From positions 47,186-111,185 of the forward strand of contig JBAWZC010000002.1 in assembly GCA_037143235.1 (NCBI GenBank): a stretch of 64,000 nucleotides of DNA, in the 5' to 3' direction. Under the pieces are notes generated by a model. That model did no database searches, was not told the origin of the DNA, and saw only the letters and a program-made list of their open reading frames with translations. The stretch comes from Candidatus Berkelbacteria bacterium (lineage in GTDB: Bacteria > Patescibacteriota > UBA1384 > XYA2-FULL-43-10 > 1-14-0-10-43-13). The translations under genes were made by a program, and so were the position numbers. This document shows, piece after piece, positions 3,176 to 42,461 of the stretch (position 1 is its first letter; each line of letters opens with the position of its first letter).

Positions 3176-3458
3176 ATTCCCTCCTAATTATAATTCGGTT
3201 TATTGTTACTTCTCGATTCGCGGACTCACTCGAAGAATAAAATGCTTACGATAAAGAATTTATTGTACGAGCCTGTCGAGAACCGACCACTTATTTTACT
3301 TCCCTTTTAATTTGCTTGCTCTCTGATCGACCAGCCAGAGAAGCAAAATATCTATAATAATATTATATATTCTATTACCACATCAGTGCAAGAGCACAGA
3401 TGAAATTTCTAAATTTCCAATTTCTCAATCAAACGATCAACCAAATAAATAATCTTGA

Positions 3459-4688: not shown

Positions 4689-4873
4689 CTATTATTATAT
4701 GACCATTTGGAAACCAATGCAATAAAACAAATTTAATCATTTGGTCATTTACTCATTTTTCAATTCAATTTTCAAATGATTAAATATCTAAATCAATGGC
4801 TAAATGGATAAATAATCAAATGAATAGATAATACACTAACTAAATGATTAATTGATTAAATGATTAAATCTCC

Positions 4874-5953
4874 CTAGTACACCATCATCTTGAACGCTTT
4901 GGGGTCGAGTGAATAATTCAAAGCATCCTCGAGAGTGATATCACCTCGTGAAACATACTCGGCCAGAACTTTATCCAGACTAATCATACCTTCGGCCGCG
5001 GAAGTCTGAATGATATTTGGAATCTGGAAATTCTTGCCTTCACGAATCAAGCTCTTAACGGCTGTATTTGCCATCATTATCTCCGCTGCAAGTACTCGAC
5101 CACCATTTATCTTCGGGATCAGACGCTGCGAAACAACCCCGAGCAAGACAGAAGCCAATTGCGAGGCAACCTGCTGTTGTAGATGAGGCGGGAATATATT
5201 GATAATACGGTCAGCTGTTTGCGCTGAAGAGTTGGTGTGCAAAGTGGTGAAGACCAAGTGGCCAGTCTCAGCCAGGTTCAGTGCAGCCTCAACAGTCTCA
5301 AGATCGCGCATCTCACCGACCATGACGACATCTGGATCTTCGCGCATCGCAGATCGCAAGGCTCGAGAAAATGTTTCCGTATCAGAACCAACTTCACGCT
5401 GGGAGATGACGCTTTGTTTATTTTCAAAAACATATTCGATCGGATCTTCAATCGTAATGATATGCTTGCGCTTTTCGCTATTGATCTTGTCAATCATAGC
5501 CGCCAAGGTTGTGGATTTACCTGAGCCGGTAGGGCCAGTAATAATCACAAAACCCTGATTATGCTCGGTGAATTTCTCCAAGATAGGTGGCAAACCGAGA
5601 TCGCCAAACTGGCGAATTTCTTTCGGAATAATACGCAAAGAAGCAGCTACTGTCCCCTTTTGATAGTAGATGTTAGCACGAAATCTCATCGCCTTGTAAC
5701 CAAACGAAAAATCGACATCCTTGCTGCGCTTCAGACGGATGAGCAACTCAGGCGGAGTGAAGGAACCAACAATTTTCTCAGCTCCAGCGAGGTCAACATC
5801 AGGAGAGTCTGGTATCGACATCAAATTGCCGTCAATACGGACGGTTATTGGTAGGCCGACAGAGACATGAATATCAGAAGCATTATGCTCGATCGCATAA
5901 TCCAAATATTTAGCAAAACCGTTTCCAGTTACTTCAGCCACAATCCCCTCCAA
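4874..5953 (-). CDS. pilT: twitching-motility retraction ATPase PilT
   Basis: 359 aa. Walker A GPTGSGKST, Walker B/Asp box DPDVVMVGEMRD, His box. Lacks the N-terminal GspE_N extension, which fits the PilT length. Confidence 0.8.
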   Translation of the reverse strand: MEGIVAEVTGNGFAKYLDYAIEHNASDIHVSVGLPITVRIDGNLMSIPDSPDVDLAGAEKIVGSFTPPELLIRLKRSKDVDFSFGYKAMRFRANIYYQKGTVAASLRIIPKEIRQFGDLGLPPILEKFTEHNQGFVIITGPTGSGKSTTLAAMIDKINSEKRKHIITIEDPIEYVFENKQSVISQREVGSDTETFSRALRSAMREDPDVVMVGEMRDLETVEAALNLAETGHLVFTTLHTNSSAQTADRIINIFPPHLQQQVASQLASVLLGVVSQRLIPKINGGRVLAAEIMMANTAVKSLIREGKNFQIPNIIQTSAAEGMISLDKVLAEYVSRGDITLEDALNYSLDPKAFKMMVY

Positions 5954-6210
5954 AGCGTCATTAATTCAATATAAAAGTAATTGTTTGACCCTTCCGTAGC
6001 TCGAAGAGCGAAGGAGGGCTTAATTCAATTTGCAAGTCTGTTCTCCACAAGGTCGAACCATAACTTTTTATTCTTCGAGCGAGTCTGACGAGTCGAGAAG
6101 TCCAACTCTGTTCTCGATCCATAAACACCATTTCTGTCTATATATATTCTACTCGAATAGCACTGCACAAGCAAACTATTGGCCTGCAACCGTTTACATA
6201 CAACCACAGA

Positions 6211-8998: not shown

Positions 8999-9178
8999 GT
9001 CATTGCGAGGAGTCTGCGACGAAGCAATCTATCATTTAGTCTATTCTCGACAAGCTCGAACCATAACCGTTTACTCTTCAAAAAATGAAAAATGATCTTT
9101 GGAACAAATCTTGCTAGCTGAGAAGTAATGATAGATTGCCACGAGCCGAACGAACAGATCGGCTCTCGCAATGACAAG
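8999..9178. mobile_element. MITE-like element with ~40-nt terminal inverted repeats (TGTCATTGCGAG ... CAATCTATCATT)
   Basis: Left arm tgtcattgcgaggagtctgcgacgaagcaatctatcatt. The right arm is its inverted counterpart, aatgatagattgccacgagccgaacgaacagatcggctctcgcaatgaca. A solo arm lies at 12271-12312. Confidence 0.5.
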
Positions 9179-9243
9179 CATTTATTACTCTTCGAGCGAG
9201 TTCCCGAGTCGAGAAGTAACCAATCCAAAAGAAACAACCAAAT

Positions 9244-10711: not shown

Positions 10712-10992
10712 ATTACCCTCCAGAGTAATCCATAAATATGCTTAATATTATTGTATAATACATTAAAGCTAATGACAAGCGAACGCTATTTATTCATTTA
10801 ATCATTTGATCAATTAGTCATTTATTTCACTATTTGAACACCAAATTTATTGTTTCTGTGATTTGGTCCGTTTTTCTCCCGACTAACTCCTGCCTGCCCC
10901 GAGTAACCCTGCCGTGCCATCCGTAATTTTAATGAAGGATAGGCGAAGTGGGATCTCCTGTCTTCTGTCTCCTGACTCTTAGCTGCTATCTC

Positions 10993-14225: not shown

Positions 14226-14298
14226 CTGTCATTCCCGCGCAGGCGGGAATCTACCAAAAGGTTTACTGTTTGTGGATTCCCGCCTGCGCGGGAATGAC
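14226..14298. repeat. 73-nt palindromic element (tgtcattcccgcgcaggcgggaatc ... gattcccgcctgcgcgggaatgaca)
   Basis: Perfect 25-nt inverted arms around a 23-nt spacer. A related copy lies at 22296-22395. Confidence 0.6.
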
Positions 14299-14411
14299 AA
14301 ATGAATCGGGAGAGACATTTTTTTTATTCTTCGAGCGAGTTTGACGAGTCGAGAAGTATCAGACTGTTCTCCTCAAGCTCGAACCATAGCTATTGAGATG
14401 ACCGATATTAT

Positions 14412-15768: not shown

Positions 15769-15795
15769 AAAACACCTCAGACACCTGAGGTGTTT
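15769..15795. terminator. conserved hairpin terminator (family aaacacctca-N-tgaggtgttt)
   Basis: aaacacctcagacacctgaggtgttt with a 10-bp stem, between two minus-strand genes. Confidence 0.6.
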
Positions 15796-15822
15796 ATTAG
15801 ACAAAGTACATATCGATTAGTC

Positions 15823-17674: not shown

Positions 17675-17708
17675 AAACAAACACCTCACATGTATGAGGT
17701 GTTTGTTT
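17675..17708. terminator. conserved hairpin terminator (same family as 15769, 40017, 42433)
   Basis: aaacaaacacctcacatgtatgaggtgtttgtttt with a 14-bp perfect stem. Confidence 0.6.
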
Positions 17709-19145: not shown

Positions 19146-19373
19146 ATGCATCTCGCATTTCACCATTTCATCACTTTTTCATTTAAACATTTATAAATAA
19201 ATGACTAAATGATTAATTGATTAAATGGATGCATTTGGCCCTTCGACAAACTCAGGGTCATTCGACTTTACGACCAAGTTAATTAACTCACAGAATGGTT
19301 CACCATCCCTCGACCATGAGCCTCTCGGGATCGAATGGTGAGCGAGAGACCAGATTGTTGGTCTCGAGTCGAA

Positions 19374-22295: not shown

Positions 22296-22395
22296 TATTC
22301 TCCTTGTCATTCCCGCGCAGGCGGGAATCTACAAATAGTTGTATTATTCTGGATTCCTGCCGGAGTTTATCCTGAACTCGTTTCAGGGCAGGAAT
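22296..22395. repeat. palindromic element related to the one at 14226-14298
   Basis: Left arm tgtcattcccgcgcaggcgggaatctac. Right arm attcctgccggag...cagggcaggaatgacaa. Confidence 0.5.
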
Positions 22396-22688: not shown

Positions 22689-22862
22689 TTGTGCCCTATT
22701 CTAAGCTAATTTTTTTTGATAAGATTGCTTTGTATCATCATAACTTATTCTTCGAGCGAATTTGATGAGTCGAGAAGTATATAATAGTTTTCAACGGACC
22801 CGAACAAGAATTTCGATACTTGCCAATATTAACACAATTTCAATTATATTTCAAGGACAAAT

Positions 22863-31699: not shown

Positions 31700-31830
31700 T
31701 ACGAATGGTCGGACGCTAAACGCTGTTTTAACGACACTAGATGTCCTGCGGCGCCAAGCGCTGCTATAACGACGCTAAATGTTGTGGTCGGACGCTAAGC
31801 GTCCGTTAAACCACGCTCAGCGTGGTCGGA
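31700..31830. repeat. REP-like palindromes (family C: gacgctaaacgctg / gacgctaagcgtcc / cacgctcagcgtgg)
   Basis: At least four palindromic units. The last overlaps the 3' end of tRNA-Pro by 3 nt. A related copy lies at 63441-63480. Confidence 0.55.
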
Positions 31831-31898
31831 GCGCCGAGACTTGAACTCGGAATCTCACGAACCCGAATCGTGTGCCCTACCAATTAGGCCACGCTCCG
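31823..31898 (-). tRNA. tRNA-Pro(CGG)
   Basis: CGGAGCG/TG/GCCT-AATTGGTA-GGGC/A/CACGA-TTCGGGT-TCGTG/AGATT/CCGAG-TTCAAGT-CTCGG/CGCTCCG/A/CCA. Confidence 0.7.
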
Positions 31899-33818: not shown

Positions 33819-34229
33819 ACTGATATTGAATAGTTTCATTTAGTCATTTAGCCAATTGATCGTTTAATCATTGATTGAAGAATTGGAAATTGGATATTGG
33901 GAAATTAACTGATTATTGTTTCTTGGTTATTGTATCTTGGGGTCACTTCTTGACTATTGCTTCTTGCCAGTTTAGGTAATTAGAAATTAGAAATTAGAAA
34001 TTTTCTCAGCGTCCGCCCCACCCTCTAAATTGGTTATAAATAACCAAGTGGGCGACCTCACGCTCTGACCACGGCCAGAGCAAATATTAGAAGCCCTTAA
34101 AAGATTTGTTAGCCAATTTATGATAGATAGGACGGACAGACACATCTTATCATAACTTCAAATATCGCCAAAACCTTTTATATCAACTCTGATTCTGGTA
34201 AAATAGTCTTGTTAATATCGGAATGACCT

Positions 34230-37463: not shown

Positions 37464-38285
37464 TTAAATCCGATAAATCTCTCTGTTGTACTCCCCTACG
37501 CCAACAAATTCGGCTTTGCCCGTAATGATTTTTTCCATTGCCTCGCAAGCATAGCAACCAGATCGCTCGCATGCAAAATCATTGTTCTTCCGTGCTTCTT
37601 TGATCTTCGTCGCTATTTCCATCACTCTTTTCTCCGACTCAACTAGCGATGGCAATTCGGCATCAACCATCTCGCCCTTGTCTAGATACCAATAACTCGC
37701 TTTTCTAATTTTGCGCTTCTGACAGTGTTCCAAAAGTAATCTATAGATAGCCAACTGGAGAGAATTTTTCGATTCTTCGTTCTTGCCGGTCTTGAAATCA
37801 ATAATATCGACGGTGTCATCGTCAGGATTATATTTGACCCAGTCAACTTTGCCACAAAGAATAATATTTTGCGCTTCGCTCAGCCAGTACCATGGCAGAT
37901 CCTGCTTCAGCTTAATCGCTTTTTCCAGCAGTGGCCCAGGATTTCTCTCCACATTCTCTAGCATAGTCAGTGCTCTGGCCTTATATTGCATTTCTTCTGT
38001 CTCATCTTTGAAACCACCAATCTTGCCCTGGACTTTTCGCCATTTGACACTCAGAAGAACTTTGAAAGGAATATCAAAGCGTTTCTCGGCTGGCAACTCA
38101 GACAAAGACTCTAGCACATCATGCACCACCAGACCGAGCGATAGATGAGGATTGGTCAAGGTAACTTTGCGTCCAGTTTCTGGATTTTTATAAACATTAT
38201 TCAAAAAATACAACCTCGGACAGCGAAGGAAGTCATTGATAGACGAATGTGAGACCCAAATTGCACTAAATTTATCACCTGCCAT
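37464..38285 (-). CDS. PD-(D/E)xK nuclease, Cas4/RecB-like with Fe-S Cys cluster
   Basis: 273 aa with a VDIIDFKTGK core (D...D/E-x-K). Cys22 near the N-terminus plus the C-terminal CERSGCYAC matches the Cas4/AddB 4-Cys pattern. Confidence 0.6.
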   Translation of the reverse strand: MAGDKFSAIWVSHSSINDFLRCPRLYFLNNVYKNPETGRKVTLTNPHLSLGLVVHDVLESLSELPAEKRFDIPFKVLLSVKWRKVQGKIGGFKDETEEMQYKARALTMLENVERNPGPLLEKAIKLKQDLPWYWLSEAQNIILCGKVDWVKYNPDDDTVDIIDFKTGKNEESKNSLQLAIYRLLLEHCQKRKIRKASYWYLDKGEMVDAELPSLVESEKRVMEIATKIKEARKNNDFACERSGCYACEAMEKIITGKAEFVGVGEYNREIYRI

Positions 38286-39864: not shown

Positions 39865-40016
39865 TCTCCTCCTCTTGAGATTATATAATGCTAAATATTT
39901 TTCATCTAAATACTAGCACTTTACGCATATTTAGCAAACGGCCGGATGGGCCGTTCGAAACACTTCAGATATGCATACCCCCCCTAACTCCCCCTATCTT
40001 AGGGGGAGGAAAATAC

Positions 40017-40049
40017 TAAAACACCTCATACATCTGAGGTGTTTGTAAT
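40017..40049. terminator. conserved hairpin terminator (aaacacctca-N6-tgaggtgttt family)
   Basis: aaaacacctcatacatctgaggtgtttgtaatt. Two further hairpins lie just upstream (aaacggccggatgggccgtt, ctccccctatcttagggggag). Confidence 0.6.
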
Positions 40050-40096
40050 TACGATCAATATTACCTGATTAACTGTGAGTGTTATATTATTGTCAT

Positions 40097-40137
40097 AATG
40101 TAATAATTAGTACGCTATAGCTTGGTAATTGTTACAT
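40097..40137. repeat. 42-nt palindromic direct repeat, copy 1 (gtaataattaGtacgctatagcttggtaattGttac)
   Basis: About 90% identical to the copy at 40697-40738. Its internal arms gtaataattac / gtaattattac are exact reverse complements. Overlaps the stop codon of the PaaX-like gene. Confidence 0.6.
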
Positions 40138-40674
40138 TGGGGATTGATCGAGATTGAAATAGCGAATAAGTTTGCTCTGAATTGGGAGATGATCCGTATT
40201 TAGATAAACGACAAATGGCGCAATGCTCAGGTTTTGTGCGATGATCGCGACCTCCTCTTTACATTCATACGGATACGCCCAGAGACTCTTTTGCACTTTA
40301 TAAAATCCAGACTCTTTTAACTTGTCCTTGAAACAATCACGCTCTTTCTTGTATTTTTCCGGAACATCCCAACAGACGATATGCCACAAACCATCCCATT
40401 CCTCATCTTCAGCTGGTGCATTTATCTGAATATCCTCTACCTGAATCATCTTCAGCAGCCGCATACCTTTTTTGCTTAATGTGATCTCTTCGCCAGAAAG
40501 ATATATTAATTTATCGTCGAACAATTTCTTGATAATTTTCTTGTTGTAATATTTATCCTGTCGCTTTACAACTTTGAGTGCTTGGAGAGCATTCGGCACA
40601 AGTAGCAATACCCCGACCAAGAATGCGGCTCCTATCACTTTTAGCACTACCTTTTTCTTTTCCGATATCCTCAT
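40132..40674 (-). CDS. PaaX-C-terminal-domain-like protein with N-terminal TM helix
   Basis: 180 aa. WDGLWHIVCWDVPEKYKKERDCFKDKLKESGFYKVQKSLWAYP matches the PaaX_C pattern W-G-W-x-v-fdvPE...R...lr..L...GF..lq.SvW. Confidence 0.5.
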   Translation of the reverse strand: MRISEKKKVVLKVIGAAFLVGVLLLVPNALQALKVVKRQDKYYNKKIIKKLFDDKLIYLSGEEITLSKKGMRLLKMIQVEDIQINAPAEDEEWDGLWHIVCWDVPEKYKKERDCFKDKLKESGFYKVQKSLWAYPYECKEEVAIIAQNLSIAPFVVYLNTDHLPIQSKLIRYFNLDQSPM

Positions 40675-40696
40675 ATATACATTATACCAAATACCA

Positions 40697-40738
40697 AAAT
40701 GTAATAATTACTGCGCTATAGCTTGGTAATTATTACAT
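40697..40738. repeat. 42-nt palindromic direct repeat, copy 2
   Basis: aaaatgtaataattactgcgctatagcttggtaattattacat, 23 nt upstream of the PaaX-like start codon. Confidence 0.6.
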
Positions 40739-40820
40739 AAATATTTAGGGGGGCACCAATTTTTGCTGCTGCTTTGCGACAAGGTATTTGCGACAGGTAT
40801 CTGTGTTGCGTTCGGCTACG

Positions 40821-42432: not shown

Positions 42433-42461
42433 AAAACACCTCACATATATGAGGTGTTTGG
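42433..42461. terminator. conserved hairpin terminator (same family)
   Basis: aaaacacctcacatatatgaggtgtttgg, immediately after the argS stop. Confidence 0.6.

Follow-up and report, generated by a model that had tools for sequence, protein, structure and literature searches.

A truncated PaaX relative in Berkelbacteria, encoded between two palindromic repeats that may be its own operators

In a 64,000-nucleotide (nt) stretch of the genome of an ultrasmall Candidatus Berkelbacteria bacterium (contig JBAWZC010000002.1, positions 47,186 to 111,185; hereafter the window, whose own numbering is used throughout), a single small gene on the reverse strand lies between two near-identical palindromic repeats, and its product, which we call mini-PaaX, resembles the PaaX family of transcription factors. 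What are these paired repeats? They might be operators through which the protein regulates its own gene, the boundaries of a small mobile cassette, hairpins in RNA or single-stranded DNA, or generic intergenic repeats. To our knowledge, almost nothing is known about gene regulation in the candidate phyla radiation (CPR)/Patescibacteria. The answer that we favor, with a probability of roughly 60%, is that mini-PaaX is an autoregulated repressor with two cognate PaaX-type operators; this reading is drawn from comparison of sequences and of predicted structures.

Two palindromes around one gene

A repeat finder located two direct copies of a 44-nt repeat, at 40094-40137 and at 40695-40738, which are 91% identical and start 601 nt apart. 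A pattern search with a 40-nt query and up to 3 mismatches gave 2 sites only in the 64 kb, compared to 0.00 expected (100 shuffles). Both searches bear out the original prediction that the gene is bracketed by two direct repeats, each internally palindromic, while the further copies of the exact unit for which it had proposed a genome search are absent from the window. Each repeat is a near-palindrome with the centre GCTATAGC. On the gene strand, the upstream copy (P_up, 40695..40738, reverse strand), which we propose as the promoter-proximal operator, reads ATGTAATAATTAC-CAA-GCTATAGC-GCA-GTAATTATTACAT, with perfect 13-nt arms and 14 nt between the arms. The downstream copy (P_dn, 40094..40137, reverse strand), the proposed second operator, has 2 mismatched pairs among the 13 of its arms; the exact reverse-complement arms that had been described for both copies therefore hold for the upstream one only. 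The last Met codon and the TAA stop of the open reading frame (ORF; 40132-40137) fall within P_dn, in agreement with the overlap with the stop codon noticed earlier. Both copies fold into hairpins better than shuffled sequences (P_dn, -7.9 kcal/mol, z -2.5; P_up, -14.2 kcal/mol, z -5.3), and Rfam returned no family at the palindrome site at either of two thresholds.

The upstream palindrome (40699-40738) ends 24 nt 5' of the ATG (40672-40674), and an extended -10 box, TGGTATAAT, can be read in the interval (40681..40689, reverse strand), giving the order palindrome, 9 nt, TGGTATAAT, 6 nt, ATG. A consensus promoter scanner that requires a -35 box made no call at this promoter. The motif TGnTAnnnT was present in 7 of 14 close homologues, against a background of 1.5%; its distance from its first base to the ATG was 15 nt in six of these loci and 17 nt in L002, and three more loci had TA(A/T)AAT at the same place without the TG. 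The upstream copy in close homologues lies directly 5' of TGnTA(A/T)AAT, which ends 6-7 nt before the ATG. Because the extended -10 box in the window ends 6 nt before the start codon, a leaderless or near-leaderless mRNA is predicted. By analogy with PaaX, the predicted operator, which covers the spacer and the -35 zone, is in a position suited to repression by occlusion.

The mini-PaaX gene (40132..40674, reverse strand) encodes 180 amino acids. Pfam detected a single domain, PaaX_M (PF20803, the central Cas2-like domain), at residues 91-164 (E = 3.2e-19; 69 bits against a cut-off of 24). No match to the PaaX N-terminal domain was obtained, nor to PaaX_C (PF08223) even at E = 10, the protein ending at residue 180 directly after the Cas2-like domain. 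The relation to PaaX regulators that had been proposed was thus right in family, whereas the C-terminal domain that had been named was not the one present. The score against the PaaX equivalog model TIGR02277 was 27.3 bits (cut-off 264.55), and that against the cas2 model TIGR01573 fell just short (23.1 bits, cut-off 24.5; both NCBIfam). An AlphaFold2 model built on a 111-sequence alignment showed a beta-alpha-beta-beta-alpha-beta ferredoxin fold at residues 90-175, with a predicted local distance difference test score (pLDDT) above 90, and a Foldseek search of the Protein Data Bank (PDB) placed E. coli PaaX first (8a39, 140 columns), followed by many Cas2 structures (probability ~1.0) and by Rv0674. 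This Cas2-like domain (residues ~91-172; 40159..40404, reverse strand) carries the 'YD(I/V)PE' Asp, D103, which is invariant in the 111 sequences, and the 'Q.S' motif is also retained in the family; E. coli PaaX and Rv0674 are without this Cas2-type Asp.

The N-terminal half was modelled with low confidence (pLDDT 42-75) as H29-32, H38-53, E56-59, E62-65 and H68-81. This topology, a helix, a two-strand wing and a helix, suggests a winged-helix-like DNA-binding region at residues ~29-81 (40432..40590, reverse strand), for which the profile matches were weak (residues ~45-90; Sso10a 1r7j, E 0.056-0.078, and PADLOC WH_III-A, E 1.9e-4). Before it, residues 9-27 (40594..40650, reverse strand) form a hydrophobic helix with a Kyte-Doolittle hydropathy of 2.57, compared to a median of 1.63 in the family, where 58 of the 111 members reach at least 1.6. 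The AlphaFold2 model has a helix at residues 5-19 (pLDDT <50), and the segment may either anchor the protein in the membrane or be buried as its first helix. The N-terminal transmembrane helix originally proposed is therefore borne out as a hydrophobic segment, which may or may not span the membrane. PADLOC gave no defence-system model for mini-PaaX, only the weak Cas2 and winged-helix matches, and PHROG gave no match. Together, these results indicate that mini-PaaX is a truncated PaaX relative in which a hydrophobic helix at the N-terminus is followed by a probable winged helix and by the Cas2-like PaaX_M domain, without PaaX_C.

Homologues numbered 22 in a first search and 198 in a later one, nearly all of ~175-185 amino acids, and a profile search retrieved 4589 representatives of 50%-identity clusters at E ≤1e-3 (2237 at E ≤1e-10). 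In mini-PaaX, the CPR/Patescibacteria seem to have a very large family of regulators. The 34 genome loci that we recovered come almost all from metagenome-assembled genomes (MAGs) of this group, including Saccharibacteria, Berkelbacteria, Daviesbacteria, Paceibacterota and others, and no relatives were found on viral contigs. Database names of members vary between 'hypothetical', 'PaaX' and, for some NCBI or JGI entries, 'Cas2'.

The gene again lay between ~40-nt palindromes, with the same centre and quite different arms, in the four homologous loci inspected first (protein identity 55-60%). A strict palindrome scan (at least 16/20 paired) missed most sites, and we replaced it with a flank-to-flank identity test, which takes the best ungapped 30-mer common to the 220 nt upstream and the 260 nt downstream, counts a match when at least 24/30 positions are identical, and uses shifted placements as controls. 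By this test, the flanks shared a ~40-nt palindrome in 26 of 33 homologous loci compared to 0.8% of 760 shifted controls. The bracket persists at 28-31% protein identity, where the arms in L034 and L030 form 19-24 perfect pairs, and the two centres are 532-730 nt apart, corresponding to the length of one gene. The centres read GCTATAGC, GCGATCGC, GCTATCGC, GCGATAGC, GCTATTGC or CGATCG, giving a conserved GC(T/G)AT(A/C)GC. Paralogues within one MAG (L010 and L012; L016 and L023) have the same core and different arms. Two loci, L003 and L010, carry two adjacent downstream sites; at L033 (~5620-5700) the downstream palindrome is apparently split at its centre by an insertion of ~26 nt. The layout of a gene between two sites is thus a family trait across CPR lineages.

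Site anatomy and the competing explanations

Alignment of 51 copies from 26 loci showed core columns that were 90-100% conserved and arms without a consensus. The arms nevertheless pair with each other: 77.5% of cells were paired, compared to 44.9% in shuffled alignments (0 of 500 shuffles reached the observed value) and 35-44% with slid partners. Dyad symmetry peaked 12-18 bp from the centre (1-7 of 51 copies unpaired) and was lowest beside the core (15-20 of 51 unpaired), in palindromes whose length varied from 38 to 44 bp across loci. Since symmetry is strongest 12-18 bp out and weakest beside the core, the site consists of two distal half-sites ~30 bp apart plus a central element, an anatomy unlike that expected of a stem-loop maintained by structural selection. 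Arm mismatches had no strand bias (G.T 42, A.C 50), as expected for double-stranded DNA sites. Arm identity was 65% for protein pairs at least 65% identical and fell to background for pairs below 50% (Mantel test, 0 of 2000). Arm similarity tracked both halves of the protein, the N-terminal one by a slight margin over the Cas2-like one.

The operator of E. coli PaaX, TGATTC(N27)GAATCA, is 39 bp long, and steric hindrance, or occlusion, is the means by which this protein represses its own promoter (PMC9493321). We infer that mini-PaaX binds the palindromes in a similar manner. It would probably be a dimeric DNA-binding protein, held together by a Cas2-like domain that dimerises and deprived of the effector-binding C-terminal domain, with its two winged helices reading the distal half-sites ~30 bp apart in each 40-bp palindrome. 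The central GC(T/G)AT(A/C)GC could be a contact point for the Cas2-like dimer, or the DNA may require it in order to bend. It is a speculation, in keeping with the data, that the centre goes with the Cas2-like domain, both being conserved, and the arms with the winged helix, both being variable. Occupancy of the upstream operator would block RNA polymerase at the extended -10 promoter, resulting in negative autoregulation. The downstream operator would most likely cooperate with the upstream one through a ~600-bp loop, act as a roadblock against convergent or read-through transcription, or do both, and in some genomes further operator copies at the promoters of adjacent genes would create a small local regulon.

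The downstream copy has a context of its own. A hairpin resembling an intrinsic terminator, AAACACCTCAGATGTATGAGGTGTTT followed by a T-rich tail (40019..40044, reverse strand), is the probable 3' end of the mini-PaaX transcript in the terminator scan, and P_dn, lying between the stop codon and this hairpin (40044-40019), is thus transcribed. We rejected the idea that P_dn always precedes an intrinsic terminator, since this was seen in 8 of 28 loci compared to 19% in controls. The next gene after P_dn was co-directional in 11 and convergent in 13 of 24 loci, indicating that P_dn belongs to the module and not to the neighbour; as an operator of the next gene, P_dn fails in the 13 convergent loci. 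In L013, L015 and L020, the gene that starts right after P_dn resembles the N-terminus of excinuclease UvrC, as judged by eye and without a domain search.

Extra copies of the palindrome occur at some loci. In L030 they precede TGaTATAAT and a 36-amino-acid hydrophobic (transmembrane) peptide with a GGDEF gene or operon, and in L009 they precede TGgTATTAT promoters of membrane-protein genes on the other strand. In L027, each of three tandem ~210-nt units holds one palindrome, one TATAAT box and hairpins; the mini-PaaX gene 3 kb away has no more than a degenerate half-copy in its own flanks. At closer view, the L027 array (1430-2050) comprises three to four units, each with the palindrome GGAACAAATAGCACGCTATAGCGTGCTATTTGTTCC, the TATAAT box and two conserved hairpins, and these units look like operator-controlled small RNA genes. 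A metagenome scan with a 17-mer of the repeat gave 17 matches, 16 of which were chance matches without a palindrome. The remaining one was a solo palindrome, CCATCCAATTACCAcGCTATAGCtTGGTAATTGGATGG, between two terminator hairpins on a groundwater contig (L040, 5470-5520), with no mini-PaaX gene in the 6 kb examined.

Several observations weigh against the autorepressor reading. The two copies resemble each other better in direct than in inverted register at 16 loci, equally at 9 and worse at 3, and a symmetric dimer does not explain this direct orientation. Four positions beside the core are asymmetric and oriented with the gene across clades (A/G 7 against 0 for the mirror arrangement, A/C 5 against 0, C/T 5 against 1). 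All four copies in L057 share one orientation, as do, by eye, the four copies in L009. Simple half-site recognition would lead one to expect the opposite of a conserved centre between variable arms. In the 64 kb, the only recognisable sites bracket the regulator's own gene, and the regulator has no obvious target. In L005/L057, a 20.5-kb stretch has four copies clustered in 3 kb, of which three are located between convergent 3' ends rather than at promoters. The winged-helix assignment rests on a low-confidence model and weak profile matches, and a classical repressor role would be harder to reconcile with an N-terminus that was truly transmembrane. The polarity of the sites, their direct orientation, the unrelated contexts and the retained Cas2 Asp keep both the mobile-cassette and the RNA-level explanations alive.

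We consider it unlikely that palindrome, gene and palindrome form a small mobile or excisable cassette, in which the palindromes would be recombination or cleavage sites and the winged helix-turn-helix-Cas2-like protein would read the arms and act at the centre. This idea draws on close homologues in unrelated contexts: the proteins of L007 and L009 are 88% identical with zero shared flanking ORFs, and in the related loci L015, L018, L019 and L020 the unit is placed differently relative to shared genes. It is also consistent with the direct orientation of the copies, the runs of palindromes that flank other genes in L005 and L030, the solo palindrome in the 6 kb of L040, which contain no mini-PaaX gene, the invariance of the Cas2 metal-binding Asp D103 that E. 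coli PaaX and Rv0674 lack, and some neighbourhoods that resemble defence islands (HsdR, GmrSD, HNH and PD-(D/E)XK genes). However, no recombinase or transposase adjoins the units, no integrase was seen in the window or the loci examined, and the lack of relatives on viral contigs argues in the same direction. An empty-site search using the exact neighbour proteins recovered only the identical arrangement, on which two independent assemblies agree. When the inner flanks of L007 and L009 were compared, the upstream copies resembled each other and the downstream copies resembled each other, suggesting that the two sites are old and evolve separately instead of being regenerated by insertion, and the clear promoter context of the upstream copy also speaks against mobility. 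The original prediction had offered paired operators or the boundaries of a mobile cassette. The former gained from the PaaX-like protein, the PaaX-operator geometry, the contact with the promoter, the divergence of the arms with the protein and the different arms of paralogues; the evidence for the latter is circumstantial, namely variable context and direct orientation.

It is more doubtful still that the palindromes are RNA or single-stranded DNA hairpins, serving as a 3' stabiliser, terminator or protein-binding element and recognised by the Cas2 fold, which resembles an RNA recognition motif. P_dn is transcribed and, in the 13 loci with a convergent neighbour, sits between convergent 3' ends, the usual place of a terminator; both copies fold better than shuffles, the arms covary, and the inner flanks have a gene-oriented polarity. 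Yet P_up lies upstream of the -10 box and is thus not on the gene's own transcript, and the transcribed copy in the window is the one that folds more weakly. G.U-compatible mismatches were not in excess over A.C, and pairing was weakest beside the putative loop and strongest in the distal stem. No U-tract follows the palindromes, intrinsic terminators are not enriched after P_dn by the counts given above, and Rfam offers no match.

A further reading, which we regard as a long shot, goes beyond an autoregulated repressor. Mini-PaaX and its sites may form a self-contained nucleic-acid-processing unit, with a winged helix that reads the lineage-specific arms and a catalytically competent Cas2-like dimer (invariant YD...Q.S) that acts on the conserved and polar GC(T/G)AT(A/C)GC centre. 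Such action could consist of nicking or recombining DNA to move the cassette, or of processing the gene's own transcript at the hairpins. If this were true, such a unit would represent a surviving link between nucleases of the Cas2 type and regulators of the PaaX type.

Finally, the window does hold several unrelated families of repeated intergenic hairpins, but the notion that generic repeats (repetitive extragenic palindromic (REP)-like or terminator-like) flank the gene by chance is refuted by the restriction of the unit to this gene in 64 kb, where the shuffles expected none, and by the recurrence of the bracket at homologous loci of different CPR lineages with lineage-specific arms.

Neighbouring genes and other repeats

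The window neighbours of mini-PaaX encode tRNA synthetases, hydrolases, GNAT, PD-(D/E)XK and CYTH proteins, and no paa genes were found near it. No cas1 was detected among the ten ORFs scanned beside the gene, the rest of the window being unscanned, and none was seen near homologues; a CRISPR-like array was absent from the 64-kb window and not seen near homologues. A gene for a Cas4-like PD-(D/E)XK nuclease (37464-38285, reverse strand; PADLOC Cas4, E 8e-13) is located 1.8 kb downstream of mini-PaaX. We suspected a tie between the two and rejected it, as only L002 has such a gene nearby (an 82% identical homologue).

The terminator-like hairpin after the mini-PaaX gene belongs to a family also found at 15770, 17679 and 42434. 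Its near-identical form, AAACACCTCA-N6-TGAGGTGTTT, occurs at least four times in the window, at 15770-15796, 17679-17705, 40019-40045 and 42434-42460, and also in a different CPR genome (L005, 3084-3110). The 150 nt between this terminator and the next gene (39865-40018) contain two more GC-rich hairpins (CTCCCCCTAAGATAGGGGGAG and AACGGCCCATCCGGCCGTT), followed by a TATAAT box with GAGGAGG just before a 125-amino-acid gene. The Logan assembly of the same organism breaks within this interval, where L001 ends and L059 starts.

Other repeats are scattered through the window. AT-rich intergenic blocks with an 8-nt period (ATTTAATCATTTGGTCATTT...) occur on both strands at 4731-4870, 10788-10827, 19157-19230 and 33838-33873. 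A second palindromic family, unrelated to the mini-PaaX sites (TTATTCTTCGAGCGAGT..GACGAGTCGAGAAGTA plus an adjacent 42-nt repeat), is found at 3205-3240, 6035-6128, 9038-9220, 14324-14402 and 22745-22805. A perfect-looking 34-nt inverted repeat, TGTCATTCCCGCGCAGGCGGGAATCTAC, lies at 14227-14300, with a further copy 8 kb away (22304-22348), and three tandem units of ~40 nt (TGGTCGGACGCTAAACGCTG..., 31706-31817) stand directly beside tRNA-Pro (31823-31898).

Comparison with known systems

Searches of the full-text literature gave no paper in which PaaX is named alongside Cas2, CPR, Patescibacteria or Saccharibacteria, and we found no earlier description of a mini-PaaX gene placed between operators. 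In most members, the sequences on either side of the gene give the presumed cognate DNA site directly, which could yield a protein-to-operator code for the prediction of regulons. The family could also provide naturally orthogonal repressor/operator pairs, leaderless extended -10 promoters included, for new genetic tools in CPR, and a test case for the use of the Cas2 fold in DNA recognition.

Mini-PaaX shares with E. coli W PaaX (PDB 8a39) the Cas2-like dimerisation domain and probably the winged helix that precedes it. The sites are also alike, the PaaX operator being a palindrome of ~39 bp with distal 6-bp half-sites and the mini-PaaX sites measuring 38-44 bp with symmetry strongest 12-18 bp out, and autorepression by promoter occlusion, predicted for mini-PaaX, would be a further common feature. 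In contrast, PaaX has ~316 amino acids and a C-terminal effector (phenylacetyl-CoA) domain, which the 180-residue mini-PaaX lacks, while mini-PaaX has an extra hydrophobic N-terminal helix and the Cas2 'YD' Asp, scores far below the equivalog cut-off (27 against 265 bits) and has no paa genes nearby. Unlike the PaaX operator, the mini-PaaX sites have a conserved 8-bp centre and bracket the regulator gene itself. With Cas2 and the VapD toxins, mini-PaaX shares the beta-alpha-beta-beta-alpha-beta ferredoxin-like fold and the 'YDI' and 'Q.S' motifs, but it is fused to a putative DNA-binding region and remains below the cas2 cut-off (23.1 against 24.5 bits). CRISPR Cas2 differs further in its setting, since there is no cas1 in the ORFs scanned near the gene or its homologues and no array in the window; unlike CRISPR repeats, the mini-PaaX repeats are two, 560 nt apart, with a gene between them. 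Mini-PaaX is neither a PaaX orthologue nor a CRISPR Cas2.

Imperfect palindromes in the same orientation that flank a single small gene are also seen in integron attC cassettes, REP/RAYT systems and the ends of IS200/IS605 elements, and the palindrome arrays that separate genes in some of our loci recall them. These systems, however, depend on a tyrosine integrase or a HUH Y1 transposase, neither of which was found here, the mini-PaaX protein being PaaX/Cas2-like. The attC sites have conserved outer R''/R' cores, whereas in the mini-PaaX sites the centre is conserved and the outer arms vary, even between paralogues of one genome, and REP/RAYT and IS200/IS605 elements have many dispersed copies compared to two in the 64 kb of the window and four within 3 kb of the 20.5 kb of L057.

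A mechanism beyond simple promoter occlusion, such as looping, a roadblock or processing, is suggested by the conservation of the downstream site and by the sites' polarity. Looping operators (lambda CI OL/OR, lac O1/O2 and gal OE/OI) likewise place a regulator or operon between two similar operator sites, and the two adjacent downstream sites in L003 and L010 recall clustered operators of this kind. Mini-PaaX differs from them in its unrelated protein family, in looping that is only predicted, and in a downstream site located exactly at the 3' end of the regulator gene.

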